From an uncultured Chloroflexia bacterium (GTDB taxonomy: Bacteria; Chloroflexota; Limnocylindria; Limnocylindrales; CSP1-4), in contig CAVVNQ010000015.1 in NCBI GenBank assembly GCA_963749705.1, forward strand, positions 352,001 through 416,000: DNA of 64,000 nucleotides. The letters are read 5' to 3'. The position numbers and the translations under genes were made by a program. The notes below the pieces were generated by a model. That model was not told the DNA's origin. It saw only the letters and a list, made by a program, of their open reading frames with translations, and did no database searches. Positions 42,632 through 62,605 of this stretch are shown here, in pieces. Every line of letters begins with the position of its first letter. Position 1 is the first letter of the stretch.

Positions 42632-42636
42632 TCCCG

Positions 42637-44127
42637 ATGGCGTACGTCATCGGGATCGACGCATCCACGACGGCGACCAAGGCCGTCCTGATCGACGAGG
42701 CCGGCGCCGTGGCCGGCATCGGCGTGTCCGAGTACGGGTTCGACCAGCCCCATCCGCTGTGGAGCGAGCAGGACCCGCGGCTGTGGTGGGACGGCGCCGT
42801 GACTGCGATCCGCGCCGTCCTGGCGTCCTCGGGCGCGGACGCGGCCGACGTTCGGGCGATCGGGCTCACCGGCCAGATGCACGGGCTCGTCATGCTCGAC
42901 CGCGACGGCCAGGTGCTGCGGCCGGCGATCCTGTGGAACGACCAGCGCACGGGCGCCGAATGCGACGCGATCCGCGCCGCGGTGGGCCCGGAGCGGCTGG
43001 TGCAGACCACGGGGAACGACGCGCTGACCGGGTTCACGGCCCCCAAGCTGGCGTGGGTCCGGGACCACGAGCCGGACGTCTGGCGGCAGGTCGCCCACGT
43101 CCTCCTCCCCAAGGACTACGTCCGGTTCCGGCTGACCGGGGACTACGCCACGGACAAGGCCGGGGGATCGGGCACGATCCTGTTCGACCTTGGCGCGCGC
43201 GACTGGTCGCCGCTGATGCTGGAGGCGCTGGGCATCGACCCCGGCTGGATGCCGCCGACGTTCGAGGGCCCCGACGTGACGGGCGCCGTGTCGGTGTCGG
43301 GGGCGGATGCGACGGGGCTGCGAGCCGGGACGCCGGTCGTGGCGGGCGGCGGTGACCAGGCCGCGAACGCGGTCGGTGTGGGCGTCGTGAACCCCGGGCG
43401 GATGGCGCTGTCGCTGGGTACGTCGGGGGTCGTGTTCGCGGCGACCGACCGCCCGCTGTACGAGCCGGCCGGGCGGGTGCACGCGTTCTGCCACGCCGTC
43501 CCGGGCCGCTGGCACCTGATGTCGGTCATGCTCTCGGCGGCCGGCAGCCTGCGCTGGTTCCGCGACGCCGTCGCGCCCGGCGTCGACTTCGGCGACCTCA
43601 CCGCGGCCGCCGCGGAGGTCCCGGCGGGCAGCGACGGGCTCCAGTTCCTGCCGTACCTGTCGGGGGAGCGGAGCCCGCATCCCGATCCTCTGGCGCGCGG
43701 GGCGTTCGTGGGTCTCACGCTCGCCCACGACCGGCGCCACCTCGCCAGAGCGGTGCTCGAGGGCGTCGCATACGGACTGCGCGATGGCCTGGATCTCATG
43801 ATCGAGGCCGGCATGCCGGCTCCCGACCAGATCCGTGCTTCGGGTGGCGGCACGGCCAGCCCGCTGTGGCGCCAGGTCCTCGCGGACGTCCTGGGCGCCG
43901 AGATCGCGACCGTCAGCACCACCGAGGGCGCCGCGTATGGCGCGGGGCTGCTGGGGGCCGTCGGGGCGGGCTGGTTCCCCACGGTCGATGCCGCCGCCGA
44001 CGCGGTGATCCGGGTGTCGCCGGTCGCCGAGCCTGGGCCGGACACGCCGAGGTACGCCGAGGCGCACCGGATCTACCGGGGCCTGTACCCCGCGCTGGCG
44101 CCGGCGTTCCACCGGCTCGGCGGCTGA
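42637..44127 (+). CDS. xylB: Xylulokinase
   Basis: GLTGQMHG, PAILWNDQR, GGGDQAA, LPYLSGERSPH; follows xylA. Confidence 0.94.
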   Translation: MAYVIGIDASTTATKAVLIDEAGAVAGIGVSEYGFDQPHPLWSEQDPRLWWDGAVTAIRAVLASSGADAADVRAIGLTGQMHGLVMLDRDGQVLRPAILWNDQRTGAECDAIRAAVGPERLVQTTGNDALTGFTAPKLAWVRDHEPDVWRQVAHVLLPKDYVRFRLTGDYATDKAGGSGTILFDLGARDWSPLMLEALGIDPGWMPPTFEGPDVTGAVSVSGADATGLRAGTPVVAGGGDQAANAVGVGVVNPGRMALSLGTSGVVFAATDRPLYEPAGRVHAFCHAVPGRWHLMSVMLSAAGSLRWFRDAVAPGVDFGDLTAAAAEVPAGSDGLQFLPYLSGERSPHPDPLARGAFVGLTLAHDRRHLARAVLEGVAYGLRDGLDLMIEAGMPAPDQIRASGGGTASPLWRQVLADVLGAEIATVSTTEGAAYGAGLLGAVGAGWFPTVDAAADAVIRVSPVAEPGPDTPRYAEAHRIYRGLYPALAPAFHRLGG

Positions 44128-44167
44128 CGCCGGCCTGTGACCGCGGCCGCCGGGGCGCCGATCGAGG

Positions 44168-44962
44168 CTAGCCGCGCAGCTCGATCGCGGCCTTGTCGGT
44201 GTCGGTGACCTCGTCGGGCTGCTTGCCCAGGATGATCATGCCCAGCACCTCGTCAGCGGTGACCGATGCCTTGTCGACCGTGCCCACGATCTCCCCGTGG
44301 TACATGACGGCGATGCGCTCGGACAGGTCGAACACGTCGTGGATGTCATGGCTGATCAGGAAGATCCCGATGCCCTCGCTCTTGAGCTGCCGGATCAGGT
44401 TGCGCACCTGCGCCGTCTCGGCGGGACCGAGCGCCGCCGTCGGCTCGTCCATGATCAGGATCCGGGCGTTGAAGTAGACCGCGCGCGCGATCGCGACGGC
44501 CTGGCGCTGGCCGCCGGAGAGCGACTTCACGGGCATCTTGAAGCGCGTGAAGTTGGGGTTCAGGCGCCCCATCACCTTGCGCGTCTCGGCCTCCATGGCC
44601 GTGTCGTTCATGGATCCCAGGCGGGTGGTCTTCTCGCGGCCCAGGAACAGGTTGCCGGGCGCGTCGATGTTGTCGGCGAGGGCCAGCGTCTGATAGATGG
44701 TCTCGATGTTGAACCGCTTGGCGTCGCGCGGGTTCCGGATCGTAACGGGCGTGCCGTTGACCCGGATCTGGCCGCTGTCCGCCGGGTGTGCTCCCGAGAG
44801 CACCCGCATCAGCGTTGACTTGCCGGCGCCATTGCCGCCGACGAGGCCGATGACCTCGCCGGCGTACAGGTTGATGCTCACGTCCCTGACGGCATGCACG
44901 CCACCGAACGCGACGCTGATGTTGCGCATCTCGACGAGCGGCGTGCGCTCCGCGACGGTCAT
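44168..44962 (-). CDS. Sugar ABC transporter ATP-binding protein (single NBD)
   Basis: [27 protein letters not shown]. Confidence 0.93.
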
Positions 44963-44982
44963 CGGTCGTTCCTCCTTGCCGT

Positions 44983-46305
44983 TCACGAACCGCGCCGGCG
45001 GTTGAAGGTGTCCAACCCGACGGCCAGGATGAGCACGACGCCTGCCGCCACGTTCTGGCCCGGCGAGTTGACGCCCACGAAGCTCAGCCCGTAGGCGAGC
45101 GACTGCATCACGAACGCGCCGAGCACGGCCCCCGGGATCGTCCCGATCCCACCGGCGAACGAGGTGCCGCCGACCACAGCCGCGGCGATCACGTACAGCT
45201 CGTAGCTCTGGCCGATGTCGAGCGTCGCTCCATTGAGGCGTGCCGATGCGATGGCGGCCGCGAGGGCGCACAGGATCCCCATCACGATGAACGTCTTCAT
45301 GATCGTCCAGCGCGTGTTGATGCCCGCCAGCTCAGCCGCGTCGGGATTGCCACCGTACGCGTAGACGTATCGTCCGAACCGTCGTCGGTTGGCCATGAAC
45401 GTCATGACCAGGGTCACGCCGACCAGAAGCATGATCGGATCCGGGAAACCGGTCGGGATGTTCCAGCCGCCCTGGGGTGCGGGCCCCCAGCCCTGCTCGG
45501 TGGCAATCCGGGTGGCGAGGCCCTCGGGCCAGAGGTTCGCATTGGCGAACGCCGCCAGCCCGATCATCACGAGGCAGCCGACCCCACCGATCAGGATCTC
45601 CGCCCACATCGGTCGCACAGGGAAGTCGAACCGCCGACGTTGACGCCGGCCGTTGAACAGGAACACCACGATGGCGAGGCAGCCGACGATGCCGAGGCCC
45701 CAGGTCAGCGTTCCGCCGATCGATCCCTGGGCGCCACCACCGATGAGCTGGAAGGTGGGATCGAGGCCTGACACGGCCGCGCCGCTCGAGAGGTACCAGA
45801 CCAGACCGCGAATGGACAGCAGGCCGCCGAGGGTGACGATGAACGACGGCACGCCGATGTACGCGATGATGAAGCCCTGGAGCGCGCCGAAGCCCGCCCC
45901 GATCGCGATGCCGATCGCCAGCGCGATGGCCCAGCGGAACGGGAAGTCGACGCCCATCCCGAGGATGTTCGGGAGCCAGTCGGTCATCAGCAGCGCATAG
46001 CTCATCGCGACGAAGCCGACGAGGGACCCGACCGACAGGTCGATGTTGCGCGACACGATGACCAGGACCATTCCGGTCGCGATGATCGCGACCCCGGAGG
46101 CCTGGACGGCGAGCGTGACCATGTTGGTCGGCTGGAAGAACCGGCCGTCGACGAAGTTGAAGCCAAACAGGATCGCGGCCAGGGCGACCAGCATGCCGAA
46201 CAGGCGGAAGTCGAGCTCGGTCGCGGCCAGCAGGCTGCTGATTGAGGTGCGGGCAGGGGGTGGGGACTTCGCCTTGCCTGGAGCCGATTCAGCCACGTTC
46301 GTCAC
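44983..46305 (-). CDS. Sugar ABC transporter permease (XylH-like)
   Basis: [38 protein letters not shown]. Confidence 0.92.
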
Positions 46306-46337
46306 GGCGATCCCTCCGGTCCCTGGCTAGAGAGAAT

Positions 46338-46368
46338 GCGACCTGCGCGTCGGGGACGCGCAGGTCGC
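46338..46368 (-). terminator. 14-bp stem-loop between the binding-protein and permease genes
   Basis: GCGACCTGCGCGTC-ggg-GACGCGCAGGTCGC; followed on the minus strand by ATTCTCTCT. Confidence 0.7.
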
Positions 46369-46393
46369 TGGCTACGTCAGTGGTTGGGGATGG

Positions 46394-47578
46394 TCACTTG
46401 CAGGCGGCGGGTGCCGTCGCTGCGTCGACGCCCTTGCACAGGTCGGCCTTGGTGATCTGGCCGGCGTCGATAGCCACCTGCAGGTTGTCCGCGGTGAGCG
46501 GCGTGGGCTGCAGGATGAACGACTTCACCACGGTCCCGTTCGGGGTCGTGAAGTCCTTCGCGGAGAGACCGGCGGCCGGCGCGACCGTCGGGTCGAGGAG
46601 ACCGTCGGGAAGCGTCAGGTCGGCCATCGCCGTGCCGGCGCAGAGGGCGAGCGCAGCGGCACCCGCCGCCTTGCCCAGCTCGTTGGCGTTCTTGAACACG
46701 TCGACGTACTGCTTGCCCAGGGCGACGTTGTTCAGGTTGGCGGGATCGCCGTCCTGGCCGCTGAGGGGCGGGTACCCGTAGCTCTTCTGAGTCAGGGCAC
46801 CGACCACGCCGAGGGCCGTGCTGTCGTTCTCCGCCAGGATGGCATCGATCTTGTTGCCGTCGGCGACGGCCTTGTCGATGATGGCTTCCATGTTGGACTG
46901 GGCCTTCTCGGTCTTCCACGCGTCGGTGAACGTGCCGTCAGGTCCGTTGAGGATCTTGATGTCGCCGGAGGCGACCTTGTCCTTCAGCCCGGCCTCGTCC
47001 CAGCCCTGCGGCAGGAAGGTCGACGCGTTCGGATCGCCCGGGTCGCCCTTGATCAGGACGTAGTTGCCGGTCGGGACCTTCTTGATGATCGCGTCCGCCT
47101 CGGCCTTGCCGACGAGGACGTTGTCGAAGGTCAGGTAGAGGATGCTCGGATCTTCGATCAGCCGGTCATAGGCGATGACCGGGATGCCCGCGTCCTTCGC
47201 CTTCTGGAGTGCCGGCAGGATCGCCTTGTTGTCCTGCGCAAGCAGCACCAGGACCTTGGCGCCCTGCGAGATCAGCGAGTCGACGTCGGTCAGCTGCTGC
47301 TCTGCGCTGAGGTTTGCGTCGGCGGAGATGTACTTCCCGCCGGCATCTTCCACGGTCTTCTTGAGGTTGGGCTCGTCATGCGCGGCCCATCGCGGCTGCT
47401 GGAAGTTGTTCCAGGACACGCCGACGATGCAGTCGGATGCCGTGGCGCTCGCCGCCGCGCTCGCGGCGGTGCTCGGCGCCGAGCTCTCGCCGGGCGACGT
47501 GGTCGCCGTCCCGCTCCCGCAGGCGGCGACGAAGATGGCCGTGGCGCCCAACAGGGCGGCGGCTTTGCGAAGGTTCAT
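46394..47578 (-). CDS. Sugar-binding lipoprotein (XylF-like)
   Basis: Lipobox VAAC, Ser/Ala linker, RW, IAYDRLI, FDN, SGQD; ATG after GGAGGAG. Confidence 0.9.
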   Translation of the reverse strand: MNLRKAAALLGATAIFVAACGSGTATTSPGESSAPSTAASAAASATASDCIVGVSWNNFQQPRWAAHDEPNLKKTVEDAGGKYISADANLSAEQQLTDVDSLISQGAKVLVLLAQDNKAILPALQKAKDAGIPVIAYDRLIEDPSILYLTFDNVLVGKAEADAIIKKVPTGNYVLIKGDPGDPNASTFLPQGWDEAGLKDKVASGDIKILNGPDGTFTDAWKTEKAQSNMEAIIDKAVADGNKIDAILAENDSTALGVVGALTQKSYGYPPLSGQDGDPANLNNVALGKQYVDVFKNANELGKAAGAAALALCAGTAMADLTLPDGLLDPTVAPAAGLSAKDFTTPNGTVVKSFILQPTPLTADNLQVAIDAGQITKADLCKGVDAATAPAACK

Positions 47579-47708
47579 ATATCTCTCCTCCAATGGCGAC
47601 GACAACTTGTCGAGCGCCAGCACAGTGCCGCGCTACGGTACCCGATGAATCGTTCCTTCACATGCCCTCACTTGAAAGTCGCCGGTCAGGCATCGGGACC
47701 TCCGAGCC

Positions 47709-48944
47709 TCATGCGGTTGCCAGATGAACAGCGCCGGCTCGCTGGCTCATCCATGCGGACGGATCTGCCAGCAGCGGCTCGAAGGCCAGCTCCGCCGCGC
47801 CGAGCAGCGGGGCGTCGATGCCCAGGGTTGCCGGAACGATGCGCACCAGCTCGTGCGACGCCGGAAGGGCCCGGCGCGCAAGCTCACGCTCGAGCGAACC
47901 GGTCAGCAACGGCAGCAGCCGGCCGAACAGGCCGCCGAGCACGATCAGCCGCGGGTTGAGGACGTTGACCAGGCCGGCGAGGCCGGTGCCCAGCCATGTC
48001 CCGACGTGATCGAGCGCCTCGATCGCGAGCTCCGATCCGGCGGCGGCATCGGCCAGCACGCTGGACACGCCCGCCGGTCCATCCTGCGGCGATCGACCGG
48101 CCCGGGTCAGCAGGGTTCGCTCACCGACCTCGGTCTCCCAGCAGCCGATCGAGCCGCACCGGCAGGGCGAGCCCGCCGGGTTGACCGGCATGTGCCCGAT
48201 CTCGCCACCGAACCCTGCCGTCCCGGTCAGCGGCCGGCCACCGCTGATGATGCCGCCGCCGACCCCGACCTCGCCGGACACGAACAGCACGTCGTCGACG
48301 CCGATGGCGGCGCCGCGCCGGTGCTCCGCGAGCACGCCCAGGTCGGCCTCGTTGGCGACCGAGATCGGGACCGTCACGCCAAGGCGGCGAGCAAGCTCGG
48401 CGGCGAGCGAGACCTCGCCCCAGCCGAGGTTCGGCGCCATCGTGACCAGCCCGTCCTCACGCCGCACCACACCGACGATCGCGGCCCCGACGCCGATCAG
48501 GTTGTCGTCGATCGAGACGTCCGCGCGCAGCCCGTCGACGAGGCTCGCGATGTCGTCCAGGACATCGTCCGGCGACGAGGTGCCGCGGACGCGATCGGCT
48601 CGCACGAGCCGGATGACCTCGCCGCCCAGCCCGACGACGGCCACTGCCGTGGAGTCCACGGCGATCTCGATGGCGAGCACGACCGCGCTGTCGGGGTTGA
48701 GGCGCACGATCGGCGACGGACGGCCCGGCGTGCCCAGGGGCACGGCCGGCGTCTCCGACACGAGGCCCGCGATCTCGAGCTCGCCGACGAGCCCTCGGAT
48801 CGCGCTGCGCGTCAGGCCGGTGGTCGCGACAAGGCTCGAGCGGGAGACCGCGCCACGCTCGTGGAGCCCGCGGACGATCGCGCTCAGGTTCGCCCGGCGG
48901 ACCGTCTCGCTCCGCTGCCCGATGTCCGATCTCTCGATCCGCAA
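47709..48944 (-). CDS. ROK-family transcriptional repressor (XylR-like)
   Basis: N-terminal HTH (SRSSLVATTGLTRS...GRP), NEAD, GEIGH, CRCGSIGCWE; TTG at 48944 preferred because the ATG at 48989 lies inside the predicted promoter. Confidence 0.9.
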   Translation of the reverse strand: MRIERSDIGQRSETVRRANLSAIVRGLHERGAVSRSSLVATTGLTRSAIRGLVGELEIAGLVSETPAVPLGTPGRPSPIVRLNPDSAVVLAIEIAVDSTAVAVVGLGGEVIRLVRADRVRGTSSPDDVLDDIASLVDGLRADVSIDDNLIGVGAAIVGVVRREDGLVTMAPNLGWGEVSLAAELARRLGVTVPISVANEADLGVLAEHRRGAAIGVDDVLFVSGEVGVGGGIISGGRPLTGTAGFGGEIGHMPVNPAGSPCRCGSIGCWETEVGERTLLTRAGRSPQDGPAGVSSVLADAAAGSELAIEALDHVGTWLGTGLAGLVNVLNPRLIVLGGLFGRLLPLLTGSLERELARRALPASHELVRIVPATLGIDAPLLGAAELAFEPLLADPSAWMSQRAGAVHLATA

Positions 48945-48977
48945 CGGTTTGTGTTCCTTTCGCCTAAATACTGTGCC

Positions 48978-49006
48978 AGACTCTTCCATGCGCGCCTGCG
49001 TGTCAA
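48978..49006 (-). promoter_or_regulatory. Promoter for the ROK regulator/ABC operon
   Basis: Minus strand reads TTGACA-N17-GAGTCT. Confidence 0.55.
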
Positions 49007-49097
49007 GTCTGGAGGTTGCGGATATGGGACAGGTCGAAGCCGGGATGAGCGCGGGCGTGGGGGCCGGTCGAGGACGGCCCGGGTCAGGAGCACGGCG

Positions 49098-50099
49098 ATG
49101 AGCGTGCCCGGCATCGTTCGCTGGGGCGTGCTCTCGACGGCGAACATCGCCGTGCGCAAGGTGATCCCGGGGATGCGCCGGGCGGCCAATGTCGAGGTGC
49201 TCGGGATCGCGTCACGGGACGCGGACCGGGCCCGGGTCGTCGCCGGCGAGCTGGGCATCCCGCGCGCCTACGGCACGTACGAGGACCTGCTCGCGGACCC
49301 CGACATCGACGCCGTGTACATCCCGTTGCCCAACCACCTCCATGCACGCTGGACGACCGAGGCGGCGCTCCACGGGAAGCACGTCCTGTGCGAGAAGCCC
49401 CTGGCCATGACCGCGGCTGATGCCCGCACGATGGTCGAGGTCTGCCGGGGTGCGGGCATCGTGCTCATGGAGGCGTTCATGTACCGCCTCCATCCATCGT
49501 GGGTGGCCGCCCGCGAGCTCGTGGCGTCGGGACGCATCGGGCGGTTGCGCGCGGTGGACAGCTGGTTCTCGTACTTCAACGATGACCCGGCCAACATCCG
49601 CAACATTCGCGAGGCCGGGGGCGGCGCCCTGTTCGACATCGGCAGCTATTCCGTCAACCTCTCGCGGATGCTGTACGACTCGGAGCCGGATGCCGTCAGG
49701 TCGGTCGTGCTCCGTGACCCGGTCAGCGGCGTCGACGTGGTGACGAGCGGGCTGCTGCGGTTCGGCGACGGCGTGGCCACGTTCACCTGCTCCACGCGCA
49801 GCGAGCCGGATCAGCGCGTCGACATCTACGGTGACCGGGGCCGGATCTCCATCGAGATCCCGTTCAACATCCCGCCCGACCGGCCGACCCGGATCTCCGT
49901 GATCGCCGGCGGCGACCCGCCCGTGGCTCCGGACGCCGAGGTGATCGAGTTCGAGACCCGGGATCCCTATGCGGAAGAGCTCGAGCTGCTGTCCGCGGCG
50001 ATCCTCGACGGCCGGCCGGCGCCGACCGCACCCGAGGATGCGGTGGGCAACCTGGAGGTCATCGAGGCGCTGTTCGCCGCGGCGGCCGAGGATCGCTGA
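49098..50099 (+). CDS. Gfo/Idh/MocA family oxidoreductase
   Basis: WGVLSTANIA, YIPLPNHLH, LCEKP, GGGALFDIGSY. Confidence 0.9.
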   Translation: MSVPGIVRWGVLSTANIAVRKVIPGMRRAANVEVLGIASRDADRARVVAGELGIPRAYGTYEDLLADPDIDAVYIPLPNHLHARWTTEAALHGKHVLCEKPLAMTAADARTMVEVCRGAGIVLMEAFMYRLHPSWVAARELVASGRIGRLRAVDSWFSYFNDDPANIRNIREAGGGALFDIGSYSVNLSRMLYDSEPDAVRSVVLRDPVSGVDVVTSGLLRFGDGVATFTCSTRSEPDQRVDIYGDRGRISIEIPFNIPPDRPTRISVIAGGDPPVAPDAEVIEFETRDPYAEELELLSAAILDGRPAPTAPEDAVGNLEVIEALFAAAAEDR

Positions 50100-50156
50100 C
50101 GGCGGTACGATCGCCGGGCCCGGTCCGCGCCCCGGCTCGGCGAGGAGGTTGATCGA

Positions 50157-52064
50157 ATGGCGGACCTTGCGCCCGCTCCCACGCCGCGCTCCCGGCCGGG
50201 CCGTCGGCGCGTGCTGGTCATCGCCGGCGCGCTGGTGATGCTGGCGGCGGTGGCCGGTGGCGTGGCGGTGAGCCGGCCATGGGCGAGCGCACCGACCTGC
50301 CCCGCGCCGGCGGAGCACCCCGAATGGTCGGTCGCGCGACGCTGGGACGAGGCGCTGCTCGATGCCATCCGGCGAGCCCTGCCGGCTCCGACGGTCCACG
50401 CCCGGAACCTGTTCCACACCTCGGTCGCGATGTGGGATGCGTGGGCGGCCTACGACGGGACCGCGATGGGCTACCTGGTCGACGCGAAGGCCACCGCCGG
50501 CGACGTTCCGGCAGCCCGTGACGAGGCGATCAGCTACGCGGCGTATCGGGTGCTGTCCGAGCGGTACATCGGGTCCGTGGGCGGCTCCGAATCGCTGTCC
50601 GAGTTCGCCGACCTGATGGATGCGCTGTGCTACCCGCTCGACGTGACCACGACCGAGGGCGACACGCCGGCCGCGCTCGGCAACCGGATCGCGGCCGCGA
50701 TCATCGCGTATGGCAGGACCGACGGGTCCAACGAGGACGGCGGCTACGCGGCGACCGATTACACGCCGGTCAATCCGCCGCTGCCCGTGGCATCGACGGG
50801 CACGACGATGACGGATCCGAACCGCTGGCAGCCGCTCCAGATCGAGCACATGATCTCCCAGAACGGCATCCCCGTGACCAATGGCGTCCAGCAGGCCGTC
50901 GGCCCGCACTGGGGCCACGTGACGTCGTTCGCGCTGCCGCCGGATACCGGCAACGGCGCCCCGATCGACCCGGGACCACCGCCCCACCTCGGCAACCCCG
51001 TCACCGACCAGGCGTTCAAGGAGGAGGCGATCCAGGTCATCCGCGACAGCAGCATGCTCGACCCCGGCGACGGCACGACGATCGACATCTCGCCGGCGTC
51101 GCTGGGCGGCAACTCGCTGGGTGCCAACGACGGGCACGGCCATGCGGTCAATCCGGCGACCGGACAGCCGTACCAGCCGGACGTCGTGCTCGAGGGCGAC
51201 TTCGGGCGGGTGATGGCGGAGTTCTGGGCCGACGGCCCGAGCTCCGAGACGCCGCCGGGTCACTGGAACGTGCTGGCCAATCTCGTCTCCGACGAGCTGT
51301 CGCCGGACCTGCGGATCGCGGGCCGGGGCGAGGCCGTCGACCGGCTCCAGTGGGACGTGAAGCTGTACCTCGCCGTCAACGGTGCCGTCCACGACGCTGC
51401 GATCGCCGCGTGGGGCCTCAAGGGCTACTACGACTCGACCCGCCCGATCTCGATGATCCGGTACATGGGCGGGCTGGGCCAGTCGAGCGATGCGTCGATG
51501 CCGTCCTACAACGCCGAGGGCCTGCCGCTGGAGCCGGGCCTGGTCGAGCTGGTCACGTCCGCGACGACCGCGCCGGGGCAGCGGCATGCCGCGCTCCGGG
51601 GCCACGAGGGCGAGATCGCGATCCGCGCCTGGACCGGGACGCCCGCCGATCCCCGGACCCAGGTGGGCGGTGTGGCCTGGATCCTCGCCGCCGACTGGGT
51701 GCCGTACCAGCTGCCGACGTTCGTGACGCCGTCGTTCCCGGGCTACATCTCAGGGCACAGCACGTTCAGCCGGGCGGCCGCCGAGGTGCTGACCGGGTTC
51801 ACGGGCAGCGAGTACTTTCCGGGCGGCATGAGCGGCTACACGATCAAGGCCGGATCGCTCAAGTTCGAACGCGGTCCGTCGACCGACATCCATCTCGAGT
51901 GGGCGACCTTCTTCGACGCGTCGGACCAGGCCGGCCAGTCGCGGCTGTGGGGCGGGATCCACATCCAGTCGGACGATTTCGCCGGGCGGCGGATCGGGTC
52001 CGCGTGTGGCATCGCCGCCTGGGCGCTGGCCCAGCGGTACTACGACGGGACGGCGGGCTCGTGA
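50157..52064 (+). CDS. Membrane-anchored vanadium-dependent haloperoxidase / PAP2-superfamily protein
   Basis: N-terminal TM helix; motifs KGYYDSTRP (Kx6RP), PSFPGYISGHS and SRLWGGIHIQSD (SRx5Hx3D). Confidence 0.85.
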   Translation: MADLAPAPTPRSRPGRRRVLVIAGALVMLAAVAGGVAVSRPWASAPTCPAPAEHPEWSVARRWDEALLDAIRRALPAPTVHARNLFHTSVAMWDAWAAYDGTAMGYLVDAKATAGDVPAARDEAISYAAYRVLSERYIGSVGGSESLSEFADLMDALCYPLDVTTTEGDTPAALGNRIAAAIIAYGRTDGSNEDGGYAATDYTPVNPPLPVASTGTTMTDPNRWQPLQIEHMISQNGIPVTNGVQQAVGPHWGHVTSFALPPDTGNGAPIDPGPPPHLGNPVTDQAFKEEAIQVIRDSSMLDPGDGTTIDISPASLGGNSLGANDGHGHAVNPATGQPYQPDVVLEGDFGRVMAEFWADGPSSETPPGHWNVLANLVSDELSPDLRIAGRGEAVDRLQWDVKLYLAVNGAVHDAAIAAWGLKGYYDSTRPISMIRYMGGLGQSSDASMPSYNAEGLPLEPGLVELVTSATTAPGQRHAALRGHEGEIAIRAWTGTPADPRTQVGGVAWILAADWVPYQLPTFVTPSFPGYISGHSTFSRAAAEVLTGFTGSEYFPGGMSGYTIKAGSLKFERGPSTDIHLEWATFFDASDQAGQSRLWGGIHIQSDDFAGRRIGSACGIAAWALAQRYYDGTAGS

Positions 52065-52101
52065 TCCGATGGCTCGGTCTGCGTCGGGCGGTCGTGGCGG
52101 C

Positions 52102-53778
52102 ATGAGGCGCGCGGGTCCTCGCGGCCGCCTGGTGCTGGCAGGCGCTGCCCTGATGCTCCTGCTGATCGCCGCGGCCGCCATCCTCCTTCCCCGCCTCGGC
52201 GGCGGCGCGACCCCGACCTCGGCGCTCGGAGCGCCGCAGTTCGTCGAGGAGACGGCGACGTCGGGTGTCAGCCATACGTTCGGCGGCAGCGACACCTCGT
52301 ACATCGGCGGTGGGGTGGCGGTCCTCGACTGCAACGACGACGGGATGCCCGACCTGTACCTCGCCGGCGGGGGCAACCCGGCGGCGCTGTACCGGAACGA
52401 CAGCCGGCCGGGCGGGAGCCTCGCGTTCTCACCGATCGTTGATCCCGTGGTGAACGTGCAGGACGTGATGGGCGCGTACCCGCTGGACATCGACGGTGAC
52501 GGTCGGGTGGACCTGGCGGTCCTGCGCGTCGGCGGGGTGGACCTGCTGCGCGGCCTCGGGGACTGCCGGTTCGCGCGTGCGAACGACGCCTGGTCGTTCG
52601 CCTCGCCCACGGACTGGACCACCGCGTTCAGCGCGACGTGGGAGGGGAACGCAGCGCTGCCCACGCTGGCATTCGGCAACTACGTCGGCCTGGATGCGCA
52701 GGGCAACGCGACGTACAAATGTCCGGACAACGAGCTGTATCGGCCGAGCCCGGGCGGAGCGGGCTACGCACCCTCGATTGCGCTCGCGCCCGGCTACTGC
52801 GCGCTGTCGATGCTGTTCAGCGACTGGGACGGCTCGGGCCGCCGGGACCTGCGCGTCAGCAACGATCGCCACTACTACGACAACCGGGTCGGCCAGGAGC
52901 AGCTGTGGCGGATCGAGGCGGGCCAGCCGCCGCGGCGGTACACGGCCGCCGACGGGTGGGTCGAGCTGCAGGTCTGGGGGATGGGGATCGGGAGCTACGA
53001 CGTGACCGGTGACGGCCTGCCCGACGTGTACCTGACCAGCCAGGGTCCCAACATGCTCCAGACGCTGCTCGCAGGGGCGGGTGTCCCGACGTATCGGGAC
53101 ATCGCGATCAAGCGCGGCGTGGTGGCGACGCGGCCGGCCGCCGGGGGAGACCCGCTCCCGTCGACGGCGTGGCATCCGGAGTTCGACGACGTCAACAACG
53201 ACGGGTTCATCGACCTGTTCGTGTCCAAGGGCAACGTGAGCGAGGAACCTGACTACGCGTCGCGTGACCCCAGTGACCTGTTCCTGGGCCAGCCCGACGG
53301 GACGTTCGTGGATGCAGTGGCGCAGGCGGGCATCCTCAACTATGACCGGGGCCGCGGCGCGGCCCTCGCGGACTTCAACGCCGACGGCCTGCTGGACCTG
53401 GTCGAGGTCAACCTCGACGCGCCGGTTCGCCTCTGGAGGAACGTCGGCGAGGGCACGGCCGACGATCCCCGTCCGATGGGCGGCTGGCTCGGTGTGCGGG
53501 TGCACCAGCCGGGCCCGAACCGCGACGCGATCGGTGCGGTGCTCGAGGTCAGGGCGGGGGAGTCCGTGATGCGCAGGGAGCTGGTCGTCGGCGGCGGGCA
53601 CATCGGCGGCCAGCTGGGCTGGACCCACGTCGGCGTCGGGCCGGCGGCCACCGTCGACGTGCGCGTCACCTGGCCGGACGGCGAGACCGGGCCGTGGATC
53701 CCGGTGACCGCGAACCAGTTCGTGGACATCGAGCGGGGGAGCGACACGGCGACGCCGTGGGTGCCGCCGGGCGGCTGA
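52102..53778 (+). CDS. CRTAC1-like FG-GAP repeat protein with a C-terminal ASPIC/UnbV domain
   Basis: N-terminal TM helix; six Dx[D/N]xDG-type loops; RDAIGA...THVGVG...VTWPDG; alternative ATG at 52069. Confidence 0.85.
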   Translation: MRRAGPRGRLVLAGAALMLLLIAAAAILLPRLGGGATPTSALGAPQFVEETATSGVSHTFGGSDTSYIGGGVAVLDCNDDGMPDLYLAGGGNPAALYRNDSRPGGSLAFSPIVDPVVNVQDVMGAYPLDIDGDGRVDLAVLRVGGVDLLRGLGDCRFARANDAWSFASPTDWTTAFSATWEGNAALPTLAFGNYVGLDAQGNATYKCPDNELYRPSPGGAGYAPSIALAPGYCALSMLFSDWDGSGRRDLRVSNDRHYYDNRVGQEQLWRIEAGQPPRRYTAADGWVELQVWGMGIGSYDVTGDGLPDVYLTSQGPNMLQTLLAGAGVPTYRDIAIKRGVVATRPAAGGDPLPSTAWHPEFDDVNNDGFIDLFVSKGNVSEEPDYASRDPSDLFLGQPDGTFVDAVAQAGILNYDRGRGAALADFNADGLLDLVEVNLDAPVRLWRNVGEGTADDPRPMGGWLGVRVHQPGPNRDAIGAVLEVRAGESVMRRELVVGGGHIGGQLGWTHVGVGPAATVDVRVTWPDGETGPWIPVTANQFVDIERGSDTATPWVPPGG

Positions 53779-54071: not shown

Positions 54072-54125
54072 CCGCCGGTCAAAGAAGAGGAATAGGTTCA
54101 GATTCAGTTCGTGTCGGAGGATCGA

Positions 54126-54395
54126 GTGCCGCTCGCGCGGGAGAAGAAGCAAGAGGTCATCGAGTCGTTCGCCGTCAAGGACGGTGACACCGGCTCCCCA
54201 GAGGTCCAGGTCGCGCTCCTGACGGAGCGGATCCGGGACCTGACGGAGCACCTCCGCAGCTTTCCGAAGGACAACCATTCGCGCCGCGGCCTCCTCAAGC
54301 TCGTGGGACAGCGCCGGCGCCTTCTCGCCTACCTGGTGAAGAAGGACGCCACACGCTACCGGGCCGTCATCGGCTCGCTCGGACTCCGCCGCTAG
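54126..54395 (+). CDS. rpsO: 30S ribosomal protein S15
   Basis: [36 protein letters not shown]; GTG after GGAGG. Confidence 0.98.
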
Positions 54396-54520: not shown

Positions 54521-57106
54521 GTGCCCACACCCACCACGCTCGAGATCGAGTTCGGCGGTCGTACGCTCATCCTCGAGACCGGCAGGCTCGCCGGCAATGC
54601 CGGTGGCGCCGTCACGGCCCGCTACGGCGACTCGATGGTCCTCGGGACCGCCAACCGCTCCCAGCCGCGGCCGGGCCTCGACTTCTTCCCGCTCACCGTG
54701 GATTTCGAGGAGCGGATGTACGCCGCGGGCAAGATCCCGGGCGGCTTCATCAAGCGCGAGGGCCGCGCATCCGAGGCTGCGACGCTCGCGGCGCGCCTCA
54801 CCGACCGCCCGATCCGCCCGCTGTTCCCCGAGGGGTACAAGGATGACGTCCAGATCGTCATCACGACCCTGTCCACGGACCAGGAGAACGAGCTCGACGT
54901 GCTCGGCACGATCGCTGCGTCGGCGGCGCTGACGATCAGCGAGATCCCGTTCCAGGGCCCGATCGGTGCGGTCCACGTCGGCCGGATCGACGGCGAGTTC
55001 GTCCTCAACCCGACCACCAGCCAGCTCGCGGAGTCGGAGCTCGACCTGATCGTGTCCGGCACCCGCGACGCGATCATGATGGTCGAGGCGGGCGTCAAGA
55101 TCCTGCCCGAGGACGTGATGGCCGAGGCGATCATGTTCGCCCACCGGTCGATCGCCCCGCTCATCGACATGCAGGAGGAGCTGCGCGAGAAGGTCGGCAA
55201 GCCCAAGCGCCTGCCGTACCTCGAGCCGCTCACCGACTCCGTGCTCAAGTTCGCCGAGCGGGCCCGCGCCGGCGGCGAGTTCGTCGTCGTCGACGTCGAG
55301 ACCACCGGCACCGACCCGCAGCTGGCCGACCTCGTCGAGGTCGCCGCCGTCCGCGTCAAGGGCGGCAAGATCACCGACCGGTGGTCGACCTTCGTCAACC
55401 CCGGGCGCCCGATCGTCGGCAACCAGATGCACGGCATCACCGACAAGGACGTCAAGGGCGCGCCCAGCCCGGCCGAGGCGGCCCGCAAGGCGCTCGACTT
55501 CGTCGGCGGCGCCCCGCTCGTCGGCCACTCGGTCGGCTTCGACATCGCGTTCCTCGAGGAGGCGCTGGGCGACGGCACCCGCATCGAGCAGGGCACCTAC
55601 CTGGACACGCTGGTCATCGCTCGCGAGGGATACCCGGATCTCGAGAACTACAAGCTCGGGACCCTGGCGGCGTTCTTCGGCATCGAGCTGACCGCCAGCC
55701 ACCGCGCCCTGCCGGACGCGGAGGCCACCGCCAACCTGCTGATCTGGTTCGCCAAGGACCTCCCCGGCCGCATCGACACCCTGGCCGACGGGATCGCGAC
55801 CGCGGTCCGCGCCACGCGCAAGGACAAGGACGAGTCGGCGAAGCTGCTCGAGGCCGCCCGCCGCAACGCGCGCTTCAGCAAGAGCCTGTTCGGGCTGGTG
55901 CAGAAGAAGACCGTGCGCAAGCTCGTCCTCGACGAGGGCGTCCGGATGGACGGCCGCGCGCTCGATGAGATCCGCCCGATCTCGGTCGAGGTCGGCCTCC
56001 TCCCGCGTGCCCACGGCTCAGGCCTGTTCACCCGCGGCCAGACGCAGGCGCTGACCGTCGCCACGCTCGGCGCGTCCTCGGACGTCCAGCGGATCGACAC
56101 GATCAGCCCCGAGACCGAGAAGCGGTACCTCCACCACTACAACTTCCCGCCCTACAGCACCGGCGAGAACAAGCCCATGCGCGGCCCCAGCCGGCGCGAC
56201 ATCGGGCACGGCAACCTCGCCGGACGAGCGCTGCTCCCCGTCCTGCCGAGTCAGGAAGAGTTCCCGTACGTCATCCGCCTCGTGTCCGAGGTGGTGGCCG
56301 GCAACGGCTCGACGTCGATGGCCTCGACCTGCGGCTCGACCCTCGCCCTGATGGACGCGGGCGTGCCGATCAAGGCGCCGGTGGCCGGTGCGGCGATGGG
56401 CCTCGTGCTCGACGCCGAGACCGGCAACTTCGTGGTCCTCACCGACATCCTCGGCAAGGAGGACTCGATCGGCGACATGGACTTCAAGGTCACCGGGACC
56501 ACCGAGGGCATCACCGCCCTCCAGATGGACATCAAGGTCAAGGGCATCGACGAGCGGGTCATCCGCGAGGGGCTCAAGCAGGCGCTCGCCGCCCGCCTGT
56601 TCATCCTCGACAAGATGACCGCGGTGCTGCCGAGCGCCCGCGAGGAGATGTCCGACTTCGCGCCGCGGATCATCACGATCAAGATCAACCCCGAGAAGAT
56701 CCGCGAGATCATCGGCAAGGGTGGGTCGATGATCCGCAAGATCCAGGAGGAGACCCAGACCGAGATCAACGTCGAGGACGACGGCACCGTGGAGATCGCG
56801 GCCGTCTCCGGCGAGAACTCGCGCAAGGCGATCACCTGGATCGAGAGCCTGACCCGCGAGGTCGAGGTCGGTGCGCTGTACCTGGGCAAGGTCACCCGGC
56901 TGATGACCTTCGGCGCGTTCGTCGAGATCCTGCCGGGCAAGGAAGGCCTGGTCCGGATCGGCGAGCTGGCCGACTACCACGTGCCGTCCGTCGAGGACGT
57001 CGTGTCGGTCGGCGACGAGGTGATGGTGGTGGTCATGGAGATCGACCGCCAGGGCCGCGTCAACCTGTCCCGCAAGGCCGCCATGCAGCGGCATCTCGCC
57101 AAGTAG
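54521..57106 (+). CDS. pnp: Polyribonucleotide nucleotidyltransferase with an inserted DEDDh exonuclease domain
   Basis: DFFPLTVD, AGKIPGGFIKREG, HGSGLFTRGQTQ, GDMDFK, KH and S1 domains; 861 aa including a ~155-aa DnaQ-like insert. Confidence 0.96.
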   Translation: MPTPTTLEIEFGGRTLILETGRLAGNAGGAVTARYGDSMVLGTANRSQPRPGLDFFPLTVDFEERMYAAGKIPGGFIKREGRASEAATLAARLTDRPIRPLFPEGYKDDVQIVITTLSTDQENELDVLGTIAASAALTISEIPFQGPIGAVHVGRIDGEFVLNPTTSQLAESELDLIVSGTRDAIMMVEAGVKILPEDVMAEAIMFAHRSIAPLIDMQEELREKVGKPKRLPYLEPLTDSVLKFAERARAGGEFVVVDVETTGTDPQLADLVEVAAVRVKGGKITDRWSTFVNPGRPIVGNQMHGITDKDVKGAPSPAEAARKALDFVGGAPLVGHSVGFDIAFLEEALGDGTRIEQGTYLDTLVIAREGYPDLENYKLGTLAAFFGIELTASHRALPDAEATANLLIWFAKDLPGRIDTLADGIATAVRATRKDKDESAKLLEAARRNARFSKSLFGLVQKKTVRKLVLDEGVRMDGRALDEIRPISVEVGLLPRAHGSGLFTRGQTQALTVATLGASSDVQRIDTISPETEKRYLHHYNFPPYSTGENKPMRGPSRRDIGHGNLAGRALLPVLPSQEEFPYVIRLVSEVVAGNGSTSMASTCGSTLALMDAGVPIKAPVAGAAMGLVLDAETGNFVVLTDILGKEDSIGDMDFKVTGTTEGITALQMDIKVKGIDERVIREGLKQALAARLFILDKMTAVLPSAREEMSDFAPRIITIKINPEKIREIIGKGGSMIRKIQEETQTEINVEDDGTVEIAAVSGENSRKAITWIESLTREVEVGALYLGKVTRLMTFGAFVEILPGKEGLVRIGELADYHVPSVEDVVSVGDEVMVVVMEIDRQGRVNLSRKAAMQRHLAK

Positions 57107-57376: not shown

Positions 57377-58270
57377 TCAGGGATCGAACCGGATCGAGTC
57401 GATGACGTCCTGGAGCGCGGCCACGTCCCGGGCAGATGCCGACGCAAGAGCGTGCCCGACGACGATGACCGGATGGCCGGCGTCGACGACGTAGAACCAG
57501 AGCGTGTCGCCGGGGGCTGGCGGATACTCCGCGTCGTAGTTCCGGTTGAGGAACTGCAGTCGCCTGCGGTCGCACAGGTGGGATGCGAGGTCGGCCGGGA
57601 TCGAGGTCTCGACCAGCGTGGCCGGTGTTCCGCCCAGAGACACGGCACGCGGCGCCGTCACGTGCATGCCTGACTGGTTTGCCAGAGCATCCGCAAGCTC
57701 CCGCGCTGTCGGCATCGACTGCCACACGTTCGCCTTCCAGTGACACGGGTCGGCGTTGACCTGGTCCACGAACTGCCGGAGCTCGAGCATGACCGTTGCG
57801 GATGTGCCGTCGTTGGGACCGTTGAACACGATGCCGTCTCCGCTGTACCAGCCGGCGGGAACGGTGAGGCGCATCTGCGGCCAGCCCCGGTAGCCGGCCA
57901 GACCCGCCACGTATGTCCCCGGCTCGAGAGGCGCGCCAGGATAGGGGTTGGCAGACGGCAACGGGATGGGGGTAGGCGCCGCAGTCGCCGTCGCCGTGGT
58001 CGTCGGCGATGGCGATGCGCCGGTCCCGAAGCCGGGCATGCCGGGCAGGAACCCGAACGCGATCGTGACCGCCAGCGCGACGGCGGCCACTGCCAGCATC
58101 GGGCGTCGGCCGGGCATGATGACCGGCGCACTCCACGGGCCGACAGGGATGCGCTGTTGCGTGCGCTCGGTTGCGGCACGCACCGACGCGTACGACCGCT
58201 CCGGCAGGCGGTCCACGCCTGGATCGAGGTAGGCCTCGATGATGTGCGTCAGGTCGCGTTCGATCGTCAT
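57377..58270 (-). CDS. Single-pass membrane protein, putative anti-sigma factor
   Basis: Short cytoplasmic N-terminus, one TM helix, Pro/Thr linker and external domain; 4-nt overlap with the sigma gene. Confidence 0.7.
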   Translation of the reverse strand: MTIERDLTHIIEAYLDPGVDRLPERSYASVRAATERTQQRIPVGPWSAPVIMPGRRPMLAVAAVALAVTIAFGFLPGMPGFGTGASPSPTTTATATAAPTPIPLPSANPYPGAPLEPGTYVAGLAGYRGWPQMRLTVPAGWYSGDGIVFNGPNDGTSATVMLELRQFVDQVNADPCHWKANVWQSMPTARELADALANQSGMHVTAPRAVSLGGTPATLVETSIPADLASHLCDRRRLQFLNRNYDAEYPPAPGDTLWFYVVDAGHPVIVVGHALASASARDVAALQDVIDSIRFDP

Positions 58271-58839
58271 GCCAGTCGCTCCGTGGGGATCGACGACAGT
58301 CGCGCGTCAGCCTCGAGGCTGGCGCGCAGCGCCGCCGTTGCGTGATGAAGCCGGGACTTGGCCGTTCCGAGCGGGATCCCGAGCCGCTCGGCCACCTCGG
58401 GCAGGGCCAGGCCGACGTAGTGATGGAACACCAGCACCGCGCGCTGCTCGACGGTGAGCCTTCGGAAGGCCCGGTCGAGCTGATCGCGATTCTCGACGGT
58501 CAGGATCCCGGTCGATTCCGCTTGGGCGTCGAGCGACAGCGCTCGGATCTCGGCCCGCATCCGCGTGCGCCGCCTGGCCTCCGCGTAGCACTCGTGGGTC
58601 AGGATGCGGTGGAGCCACGGCTCGAAGGCATCGGGGTCGCGCAGCGCCCGAAGCTGCCGCCAGGCGGCAATCAGGGCGGCCTGCACCGCGTCGTCGGCCC
58701 GATCGGCATCGCGCAGGATCCGGAACGCGATCGCCATGCACCGATCGCCCACCATACGGGCAAGGGCATCGAAGGCCTCGCGATCACCGGTCCTCGCACG
58801 TTCCACGAGCGCTCGCACCTGGCTCTCCCTCACCTCCAT
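58267..58839 (-). CDS. ECF RNA polymerase sigma factor
   Basis: ARTGDREAF, ADDAVQ, FEPWL, EVAERLGIPLGTAKSRL; start may instead be the GTG at 58818. Confidence 0.92.
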   Translation of the reverse strand: MEVRESQVRALVERARTGDREAFDALARMVGDRCMAIAFRILRDADRADDAVQAALIAAWRQLRALRDPDAFEPWLHRILTHECYAEARRRTRMRAEIRALSLDAQAESTGILTVENRDQLDRAFRRLTVEQRAVLVFHHYVGLALPEVAERLGIPLGTAKSRLHHATAALRASLEADARLSSIPTERLA

Positions 58840-59011
58840 CCACCCTCGACCGGGCGGATCACACCAGGGAGTCCAACGGTAGGCGCAAAGGTTCAATCCT
58901 TGCGACCCGGGAACGCGAGTGCGACCCGTCAGGCACGTGGACGGCCGTTCGTTCGGTGGTGCGCGCCTCCGCAATAGGGCGGTCGCCCGGGGCGGAACGT
59001 CCGAGGCCCGC

Positions 59012-60937: not shown

Positions 60938-62605
60938 ATGGCTGATCCCAACACGCCGCTCCGAATCATCCCGCTCGGCGGGGTGGGCGAGATCGGCAAG
61001 AACTGCTACTGCTTCGAGTACGGCGATGACATCGTCGTGATCGACTGCGGCCTGATGTTCCCGGACGAGGAGATGTTCGGCATCGACCTCGTCGTGCCCG
61101 ACGTGACGTATCTCAAGGAGAACCGCGACAAGGTCCGCGCGTTCCTCATCACCCACGCCCACGAGGACCACGTCGGCGGCCTGCCGTACGTGCTGCCCGA
61201 GTTCCCGGGCGTGCCCGTCTACGCCAGCAAGCTGGCGCGTGGCCTGCTGGGCAACAAGATCAAGGAGCACCGGCTCCACAACAACCCGCTGCGCGAGCTC
61301 GAGCCCGGGGACGAGCTGGAGATCGGCCCGTTCACCGCGATCCCGTTCCGGGTCGGCCACTCGATCCCCGATGCCATGGGGATCGCGCTCCGGACGCCGG
61401 TCGGCATCGTGGTCCATACCGGCGACTTCAAGTTCGATCACACGCCGGTCGACGGCAGGCTGTCTGACTTCCACACCCTCGCCCGCCTGGGCCAGGAAGG
61501 CGTCGTGTGCCTGCTGTCCGACTCGACGCGCGCCGAGAACCCGGGCTACACGCCGTCCGAGCGCACGGTGGGCGAAGCGTTCCGCGAGATCATGGAGCCG
61601 CTCGAGGGCCGGGTCATCGTGGCCACCTTCGCGAGCAACATCGCGCGCATCCAGCAGGTCCTCGATGCCGCGGCCGAGATGCACCGCAAGACGACGGTCA
61701 TCGGCCGGTCGATGGAGCAGAACTTCCGGATCGCGACGGACCTGGGCTACCTCAAGTACGAGCCATCCGCGATCGTCGCCAAGGACAAGATCAAGGACGT
61801 GCCCGCCGACAAGCTGGTGATCGCCACCACCGGCGCCCAGGGCGAGCCGATGGCCGGTCTGGCGCGGATGGCCAACCGGGACCATCGGTTCGTGGAGATC
61901 CAGCCGGGCGACACCGTGATCGTGTCGGCGAGCCCGATCCCCGGCAACGAGGAGTACGTCGCGCGGACGATCGACAACCTGTTCAAGGCCGGCGCCAACG
62001 TCTTCTACCACACCATCAAACGCGCCCACGTGTCAGGTCACGCGAGCCAGGAGGAGCTCAAGCTGATGCTCGGGCTCACCAAGCCGCAGTACTTCATCCC
62101 GATGCACGGCGAGTTCCGGATGCAGGTGCAGCACGGCCGGCTGGCGACGGAGACCGGCGTCCCGGCCGAGAACGTGTTCATCATCGAGAACGGGATGCCG
62201 ATCGAGATCTTCGCCGACGGCAGCGCCCGGCGCGGACAGCCGGTGGCCGCGGGGTACGTGTTCGTGGACGGGCTGTCCGTGGGCGAGGTCGGTGACGTCG
62301 TGCTGCGCGACCGGCGCGCGCTTGCGAACGACGGCATGTTCATGATCGTGGTCCAGGTCGACAAGCAGGCGGGCCGGATCGTCGGGCGGCCCGAGATCAT
62401 CACCCGCGGGTTCGTCCACGGCGCCGAGGAAGACCGGATCATCGAGGAGGCGATCCGGCGCATGCACGAGGCGGTCGACCAGCCCGGCGACCGGATCAGC
62501 GAGATCGCGATGATCAAGACGCAGATCAAGGACAGCCTGTCGCGCTTCCTGTACGAGCAGACCAAGCGGCGCCCGATGGTGTTCCCGGTCGTGGTCGAGG
62601 TCTGA
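60938..62605 (+). CDS. rnj: Ribonuclease J
   Basis: LGGVGEIGKN, THAHEDHVG, HSIPD, FASN, HVSGHA. Confidence 0.97.
   Translation: MADPNTPLRIIPLGGVGEIGKNCYCFEYGDDIVVIDCGLMFPDEEMFGIDLVVPDVTYLKENRDKVRAFLITHAHEDHVGGLPYVLPEFPGVPVYASKLARGLLGNKIKEHRLHNNPLRELEPGDELEIGPFTAIPFRVGHSIPDAMGIALRTPVGIVVHTGDFKFDHTPVDGRLSDFHTLARLGQEGVVCLLSDSTRAENPGYTPSERTVGEAFREIMEPLEGRVIVATFASNIARIQQVLDAAAEMHRKTTVIGRSMEQNFRIATDLGYLKYEPSAIVAKDKIKDVPADKLVIATTGAQGEPMAGLARMANRDHRFVEIQPGDTVIVSASPIPGNEEYVARTIDNLFKAGANVFYHTIKRAHVSGHASQEELKLMLGLTKPQYFIPMHGEFRMQVQHGRLATETGVPAENVFIIENGMPIEIFADGSARRGQPVAAGYVFVDGLSVGEVGDVVLRDRRALANDGMFMIVVQVDKQAGRIVGRPEIITRGFVHGAEEDRIIEEAIRRMHEAVDQPGDRISEIAMIKTQIKDSLSRFLYEQTKRRPMVFPVVVEV

Follow-up and report, generated by a model that had tools for sequence, protein, structure and literature searches.

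The DNA analysed here, referred to as the window, is a stretch of 64,000 nt from contig CAVVNQ010000015.1 of an uncultured Chloroflexia bacterium, and all coordinates below are positions within it. Its pnp gene (54521-57106, + strand) encodes a polynucleotide phosphorylase (PNPase) of 861 amino acids (aa) plus stop, into which a 3'-5' exonuclease domain of the DEDDh type is inserted. The open reading frame (ORF) has two candidate starts, TTG at 54452 or GTG at 54521, both ending at 57106; the GTG is favoured because most listed homologues are 861 aa long, and aa numbering is counted from it. Directly upstream lies rpsO, encoding ribosomal protein S15 (54111-54395, +; Pfam Ribosomal_S15, 1.9e-35). 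The genome (3.6 Mb in 22 contigs, 88% complete) yielded this one pnp; of two other matches, considered as a possible second, ordinary copy, one is a weak hit to a PH domain (29% identity, one in-frame TAG) and the other a hit to an S1 domain. A first-pass annotation, made from the letters of the window, had placed the gene at the normal rpsO-pnp locus and supposed it to be the main PNPase, and both statements agree with these results. The strings from which it had read a fused ORF, namely QEELREKVGKPKR, VDVETTG, GHSVGFD, HRALPDA, KKTVRKLVLDEGVRMDGR, TDILGKEDSIGDMDFK and GHG, are all found in the translation.

Pfam resolves the 861-aa protein into two RNase_PH (2.8e-50) and two RNase_PH_C domains, RNase_T, KH_1 and S1, so that the order PH1, helical, PH2, KH, S1 is kept and the helical domain is interrupted. 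All segments that follow are on the + strand. The PH1 core (aa 1-230; 54521-55210), with RNase_PH and with RNase_PH_C at aa 146-209, ends where the alignment with insert-free relatives stops, at GKPK. A fast-evolving linker (aa 231-249; 55211-55267), modelled by AlphaFold2 (AF2) as a helix over aa 238-249, leads into the exonuclease domain (aa 250-410; 55268-55750), which is delimited by Pfam, AF2 and Foldseek; RNase_T (PF00929) covers aa 255-407 (55283-55741) over the whole profile, positions 1-164 of 164, at 93 bits against a cut-off of 24 (3.8e-26). What remains of the helical domain (aa 411-472; 55751-55936) appears remodelled as three helices (AF2, aa 396-431, 436-450 and 454-472), the first of which runs on from the last helix of the exonuclease. 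The PH2 core with the phosphorolytic site (aa 473-700; 55937-56620; RNase_PH at aa 483-616), the KH domain (56666-56845; KH_1 at aa 718-775) and the S1 domain (56861-57076; S1 at aa 781-852) complete the chain. The NCBIfam PNPase equivalogs NF008805 (941.8 bits, cut-off 471) and TIGR03591 (938.5 bits, cut-off 525) each match in two stretches, one on either side of the insert.

Both active sites retain their signature residues. In 23 of 23 fusion proteins sharing 63-95% identity, D258 and E260 of ExoI (DVETTG, 55292-55309), H336 and D341 of ExoII (HSVGFD, 55526-55543), and H394 and D399 of ExoIII (HRALPD, 55700-55717), whose H-x4-D spacing defines the DEDDh subtype, are invariant. In an alignment of 39 sequences that takes in 26 stand-alone homologues, the five DEDDh residues D258, E260, D341, H394 and D399 are likewise unchanged. 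On the phosphorolytic side, G562-H563-G564, the NGSTSM segment, D648, D654 and K656 are invariant in all 23 fusions, as are D642 and D652 in the segment DILGKEDSIGDMDFK (aa 642-656; 56444-56488), which we take to be the metal site, along with the roles of its individual residues, from the usual assignment for PNPases. The first-pass description of an in-frame insert with a full DEDDh set, in a PNPase whose metal site, GHG histidine, KH and S1 domains are kept, is thereby upheld.

The insertion point lies within the helical domain. The Pfam model of that domain (PF03726) matches only over profile positions 48-80 of 81 (aa 447-479; 22.6 bits, under the cut-off of 24.6), whereas insert-free relatives match it over positions 4-81; the exonuclease therefore occupies the N-terminal half of this domain and has erased it. 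In the alignment, the ordinary linker from GKPK to the R-x-DGR start of PH2 measures ~70 aa in insert-free and ~240 aa in insert-bearing proteins. A canonical PNPase (TIGR03591/NF008805; structures 7ogk, 4am3, 3gcm, 8wxf and 1e3p) has the same PH1-helical-PH2-KH-S1 order, rpsO-pnp locus and core residues, but lacks the ~160-aa domain inside its helical domain, the N-terminal half of which is recognisable by the model; the listed solved PNPase chains, at 482-730 residues, are too short for such an insert. The protein is thus confirmed as a PNPase with a DEDDh domain, complete in its catalytic residues, in the N-terminal half of the helical domain.

There is practically no chance that the fusion is an assembly chimera or a mis-joined contig, since the same architecture recurs in independent genomes and contigs. 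To describe its distribution we use a class sample of 151 genomes, in which f1 is the family of this genome and f2, f3, f4 and f5 are other families of the same class; the tallies include seven genomes flagged as unpublished (G102, G122, G126, G131, G139, G145 and G156), and the pattern is the same without them. A contiguous match across the insert was obtained in 45 of 45 f1 genomes (this one included), 6 of 6 f2 genomes and 49 of 50 f4 genomes, the remaining f4 genome giving no pnp match. The architecture is therefore present in 100 of the 101 sampled genomes of the three families, among them the single-contig genomes G006 and G125. A search of 5.8 billion proteins with the insert region returned 1683 matches, and of the best 120 (72-92% identity) 88 have the full set of RNase_T, RNase_PH, RNase_PH_C, KH and S1, most of the other 32 being shorter entries. 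Where the sources name an organism, it is Candidatus Limnocylindrales or Chloroflexota, and databases already contain many such sequences, labelled automatically as 'polyribonucleotide nucleotidyltransferase' or 'DNA polymerase III epsilon subunit family exonuclease'. Both junctions are also covered by short contigs from two further studies (RNA libraries X1 and X4; DNA runs X2 and X3), which differ little or not at all from the window, for example over 55060-55249, 55241-55391, 55631-55894 and 55901-56131. The first-pass annotation had named a chimeric joint and relatives free of the insert as grounds for abandoning its reading; independent assemblies and contigs span both junctions, and the close relatives in f1, f2 and f4 carry the insert. 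Near-identical contigs from two metatranscriptome libraries of one study hint that the fused gene is expressed. Some joints in metagenome contigs that skip hundreds of bases (for example from 55132 to 56659) were considered as an insert-free form of the gene and discarded, as they have sides of 20-30 letters or intervening letters; we read them as PNPases of other organisms or as similarity between PH1 and PH2.

All 24 sampled genomes of the same genus and all 16 from f2 (genomes of ~1.1 Mb) matched, most of them with contiguous, full-length sequences and the rest with split or truncated ones. In 48 of 49 f3 genomes and the single f5 genome, by contrast, the query splits into two matches (~6-237 and 456-854) within frames of ~745 aa, which is the pattern of an ordinary PNPase with no insert. 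The taxonomic range that the first-pass annotation had left to be mapped thus takes in three families and stops short of the class as a whole. Among 401 genomes sampled across the phylum, junction-spanning matches (1-301 of 301) occur in 44, all from f1, f2 or f4; 53 others match the exonuclease core only, in other proteins, and 304 give no match at the threshold used. In the ESM Atlas, RNase_PH and RNase_T occur together in clusters of 125, 164 and 109 members, with Chloroflexota as their commonest phylum.

Phylogenetic analysis shows that the insertion occurred once, in the common ancestor of the three families, and was then inherited vertically under purifying selection. In the domain tree the inserts form one clade (SH-aLRT 99), which splits into f1 plus f2 and f4. 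In a tree of the PNPase core, with insert columns dropped and four other Chloroflexota as root, the insert-bearing proteins are one clade (100/100) and the insert-free proteins of the class another (100/100). The ratio of non-synonymous to synonymous substitution rates (dN/dS) of the exonuclease part is 0.14-0.34 in nine of ten pairs and 0.65 in the tenth, compared with 0.04-0.33 for the PH cores; at a third-position GC content of 96%, dS is probably underestimated. A mobile element or horizontally transferred island was also considered and set aside, given that GC content across the insert resembles that of the flanks (0.70-0.73) and that the insert tree mirrors the core tree.

We then asked what kind of DEDDh domain the insert is. 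Against 1.84 billion representative proteins (E <= 1e-3) it gave 30653 matches; the figures here come from the best 150, and Pfam was run on 28 of those. Three of the 28, at 48-56% identity, are PNPase fusions or fragments, and one (P0152, 57% identity) has no Pfam match. The other 24, at 31-46% identity, are PolC exonuclease domains, Exo-DinG helicases, exonuclease-BRCT, exonuclease-UvrC and FAN1/VRR_NUC-exonuclease proteins, and short stand-alone exonucleases. The entries P0136 and P0152 (48-57% identity) had been candidates for more divergent fusion lineages and were rejected as frameshifted translations of the same clade. Both have long Arg/Pro/Ser-rich stretches between good segments, mimicking divergent relatives. 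With the best 150 of the 30653 representative matches covered, a separately formed fusion, built with a more remote exonuclease domain, may still exist in another phylum.

Other searches place the insert in the same neighbourhood. Its best named NCBIfam matches are the DEDD exonuclease (PRK07883), PolC-type and DinG-type models, and the dnaQ equivalogs score far under their cut-offs (TIGR01406, for example, 71.8 against 222.7). Among solved structures, eleven matched by sequence at E <= 1e-3: PolC, the nearest of them (4.4e-23), the Thermotoga maritima PolC exonuclease 2p1j (2.9e-22) and Staphylococcus aureus DinG (2.4e-14), with further matches to Cas2-DEDDh, DnaQ, epsilon, 9l8b (named exodeoxyribonuclease III) and Exonuclease X; none of the eleven is Orn or RNase T. 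An AF2 model of the insert alone is confident (pLDDT 93, pTM 0.90) and points to the RNase H-like alpha/beta fold of the DnaQ family. Foldseek ranks S. aureus DinG first for this model (E 5e-12) and aligns PolC at 2.0 Å over 164 columns with 35% identity; a DnaQ domain and epsilon (2.4-2.8 Å) are also found, while RNase T appears only from rank 15, at a root-mean-square deviation (rmsd) of 4.3-5 Å. By sequence and predicted fold, then, the insert is assigned to the DnaQ/PolC/DinG, or DNA-type, branch, and not to the Orn or RNase T branch.

Each of these relatives differs from the fusion in its setting. PolC also has a DEDDh domain nested in a larger enzyme, with RNase_T lying inside the PHP domain (Pfam); the hosts of the PolC and epsilon exonucleases, however, belong to a DNA polymerase context, whereas here the host is an RNA phosphorylase without a polymerase partner domain. 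Epsilon is a stand-alone protein of ~240 aa with a C-terminal tail that binds the polymerase alpha subunit, in contrast to a domain nested in PNPase. Exo-DinG (S. aureus 8zef/9ii8; Bacillus subtilis DinG) has the same DEDDh motifs and is the best structural match of the insert, but its exonuclease is N-terminal to a DinG/XPD helicase, and here the domain is nested inside PNPase with no helicase domain. By family, the protein is a PNPase that carries a DEDDh domain, and it counts as none of Orn, RNase T, Exo-DinG and epsilon.

Within the class, the distribution of Exo-DinG is the complement of that of the insert. PF00929 matched 148 of 151 class genomes, most of them exactly once. In f1, f2 and f4 the match lies in pnp, with a further match in 6 of 44 f1, 5 of 6 f2 and 3 of 50 f4 genomes, and the PNPase insert is the sole DnaQ-family domain in most insert-bearing genomes. 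The match in f3 and f5 is found outside pnp, within a frame of ~900 aa that in three examples is RNase_T + DEAD + Helicase_C_2, that is, Exo-DinG. The helicase part of DinG was found in 47 of 49 f3 genomes and in the f5 genome. With the same class query none was found in this genome or in 6 f2 genomes; the sole match in 44 f1 genomes is weak (39% identity, in a 2041-aa frame of a different protein), and that in 50 f4 genomes is a 107-aa fragment at a contig end. The families with the insert thus lack the Exo-DinG that their insert-free sisters and other Chloroflexota keep, an observation that is new. Exo-DinG is probably ancestral, because three of five outgroup Chloroflexota genomes have it in full length. 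In one outgroup genome (G203, family f22) only the helicase part of the Exo-DinG query matched (248-890, in a 739-aa frame), and forms of DinG without the exonuclease appear to exist in the phylum.

This complementarity raises the possibility, which we consider appreciable though on balance doubtful, that the insert is the heir of Exo-DinG: a DNA-side nuclease acting 3'-5' on single-stranded DNA at stalled forks, gaps or R-loops, with PNPase serving mainly as its nucleic-acid-binding carrier. The module would have been moved from the N-terminal exonuclease of the lost DinG helicase, or have replaced it. In keeping with this, 100 genomes of the insert-bearing families f1, f2 and f4 give two helicase matches, neither of them a full DinG, a single PF00929 domain is usual in every family, and Exo-DinG is full-length in three of the five outgroup genomes; S. 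aureus DinG is the best Foldseek match, and DinG, PolC and epsilon are the sequence neighbours. A tree constrained to unite the inserts with the DinG exonucleases of the class as one clade was not rejected (log-likelihood 0.45 higher; approximately unbiased test, p-AU 0.52), although this grouping was chosen post hoc, after the tree had been seen. B. subtilis DinG degrades single-stranded DNA and the RNA strand of hybrids, according to PMC12525004, and PNPase has been linked to DNA repair (PMC5379764). On the other hand, one gain and one loss on one branch amount to a single event; the free domain tree gives the insert no defined sister group and does not place it inside the DinG clade; the insert is ~40% identical to the DinG exonuclease of its own class, no more than to unrelated PolC-type domains (44-46%); and the carrier is an RNA-binding, RNA-degrading ring. 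A more specific and somewhat more speculative version is that the DEDDh module of Exo-DinG was transplanted into PNPase in the ancestor of the three families and the helicase then discarded, the KH/S1-PH ring doing the translocase's job. If this were true, the fusion would be a machine that resolves R-loops and 3' ends and couples RNA decay to genome maintenance.

The nucleases that accompany the fusion define the context in which it would work. No other PF00929 domain scores above the cut-off on its own in this genome, and RNB, PF01612 (the RNase D/PolA-exonuclease type), RNase E/G, Orn and RNase T gave no match there. The only other PF00929 signal, at 18 bits, comes from a 514-aa RNase_H_2 (PF13482) protein with weak TPR on contig C2 (L026, 604-2145, - strand); it was rejected as a second DEDDh gene. 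In the f4 genome G051, a 2-kb contig (L033, 2-2002, +) holds a 667-aa frame with weak HAMP and strong C-terminal RNase_T (119.8 bits), which groups in the domain tree with a Chloroflexota protein of another family (SH-aLRT 99). None of the 151 class genomes yielded RNB, the mark of RNase II/R, which leaves PNPase, whether or not it carries the insert, as the only 3' exoribonuclease of the RNase II/R or PNPase type found in the class. The window also encodes RNase J (60938-62605, +; Pfam RNase_J_b_CASP, RNase_J_C and RMMBL) and, in a nusA-infB-rbfA-DHH-truB operon, an NrnA-like DHH/DHHA1 protein (37983-39434, +; Pfam DHH and DHHA1), a candidate nanoRNase whose NCBIfam NrnA score of 74 bits is well under the cut-off of 350. 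RNase J, PNPase and the NrnA-like protein appear to be the core decay set. Counted from the first possible start, the ORFs of NusA (33617-35503) and of the DHH/DHHA1 protein (37983-39434) have N-terminal extensions of ~160 aa before the first Pfam domain, and their true starts are probably further downstream.

That the insert is a dedicated nanoRNase, which like Orn or REXO2 would degrade the 2-5-nt limit products left by PNPase, we regard as unlikely. Its position would suit the task, adjoining the side pore of the phosphorolytic site if the E. coli enzyme is a guide (PMC2723993), neither Orn nor RNase T was found in this genome, and human mitochondrial PNPase is reported to cooperate with REXO2 in this way (PMC7261184). 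The window itself, however, encodes the NrnA-like DHH/DHHA1 protein within the conserved nusA-infB-rbfA operon; by sequence the insert matched no chain of Orn or RNase T at E <= 1e-3, and by fold RNase T is reached only from rank 15, at 4-5 Å rmsd. The first-pass suggestion that the domain finishes off short oligonucleotides therefore loses ground, such a role being neither needed, with that gene in the window, nor specifically indicated.

The remainder of the neighbourhood has features of its own. A segment of ~12 kb (41282-53778) between ribF and rpsO-pnp interrupts the usual truB-ribF-rpsO-pnp run; it carries genes for sugar use, namely an FGGY kinase, an ABC transporter, a ROK regulator, a GFO/IDH/MocA oxidoreductase and a xylose-isomerase-like TIM barrel, together with FG-GAP and DUF6851 proteins. 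Downstream of pnp lie, on the - strand, a sigma factor of the ECF type (58270-58974) and then a 297-aa ORF (57380-58270) without Pfam match, which may encode its anti-sigma factor.

We postulate that the insert acts as a hydrolytic 3'-5' nuclease for ends that the PNPase channel cannot thread or finish, a proposal that we place a little short of an even chance. In PMC2723993, the helical domain of E. coli PNPase is described on the face of the torus opposite S1/KH, where it lines a side pore to the phosphorolytic site. From that position and the point of insertion we infer a trimer with three hydrolytic sites on this face, near the helical domains. The fusion would form the usual PNPase trimer ring, with RNA entering from the KH/S1 face to be phosphorolysed inside the channel, and the three DEDDh modules would stand on the opposite face, where the helical domain borders the side pore to the active site. 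There they would be Mg2+-dependent hydrolytic 3'-5' nucleases on unthreadable ends, such as short overhangs next to duplexes, the RNA strand of hybrids, limit oligonucleotides, or ends met under phosphate scarcity. A lineage with neither RNase II/R nor Exo-DinG would so gain a second, water-using means of 3'-end removal.

Several observations weigh against this proposal. First, the insert has its closest kin among DNA enzymes (PolC, DinG, epsilon, exonuclease-BRCT, exonuclease-UvrC and FAN1-type fusions), and this kinship favours DNA as substrate at least as much as RNA. Second, the sister families manage without RNase II/R and without the insert alike; because RNB is missing there too, its absence does not discriminate between the families and cannot by itself explain the insert, and loss of RNase II/R was discarded as its explanation. 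Third, oligonucleotide clean-up is probably already covered, since the NrnA-like gene is present. Fourth, gain of the insert and loss of Exo-DinG map to the same branch, a single event that carries no statistical weight. Fifth, the AF2 monomer of the full-length protein (mean pLDDT 63.7) is confident only in the exonuclease and the three helices that follow, the PH cores being poorly modelled because the alignment is shallow, and it is uninformative on how the domains are placed; the top Foldseek matches of this model are all ordinary PNPases, at 28-40% identity. Sixth, contigs from RNA libraries are no proof of transcription. Lastly, the insert and its surroundings evolve faster than the cores: between f1 and f4, identity is 45-48% in the exonuclease, 29-32% in the helices after it and 32-37% in the linker before it, against 77-78% in PH2, and the helices and the short linker are the fastest-evolving parts, with helix dN/dS up to 0.9. 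This last point would also suit a catalytically silent domain retained for structure, regulation or protein docking within the helical domain, which is reported to modulate PNPase activity (PMC2723993). Such silence is improbable, more so than a nanoRNase role, given that the five DEDDh residues are invariant across families with only 45-48% identity in this domain and that dN/dS there is mostly 0.14-0.34.

The pairing of a PH-type ring with a DEDD nuclease has parallels in systems built from separate parts. The eukaryotic exosome combines a PH ring with the separate DEDD nuclease Rrp6. Likewise, the Caulobacter degradosome is reported to include RNase D (PMC4245959), and mitochondrial PNPase to work with REXO2 (PMC7261184). 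In all three a PH-type ring and a hydrolytic DEDD 3'-5' exonuclease share one decay pathway, but as separate polypeptides and mostly with a nuclease of the DEDDy or Orn type; in the fusion, the ring is linked covalently to a DEDDh domain of the DnaQ branch. A full-text search, with subscription-only papers outside its scope, found no description of a PNPase with a nested DEDDh domain, and passages of PMC13572404 give none of this architecture. The first-pass annotation had known of no such protein, and our search likewise gave no paper on the fusion, which is apparently an undescribed, conserved variant of PNPase.

PNPase ranks among the best-conserved enzymes of RNA decay and is ordinarily described without a second active site. 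In the fusion, a predicted hydrolytic nuclease lies covalently nested within the phosphorolytic ring, a design that three families of bacteria from soil, sediment and freshwater have retained; it is a clean example of a domain inserted into a flexible linker domain with the host enzyme preserved. In a single chain it resembles the eukaryotic exosome, where a PH ring is paired with a DEDD nuclease, and it offers a natural experiment on why cells combine the two chemistries. The loss of Exo-DinG in the insert-bearing families, together with the class-wide absence of RNase II/R, opens to direct test the old question of the extent to which PNPase acts on DNA and RNA-DNA hybrids.

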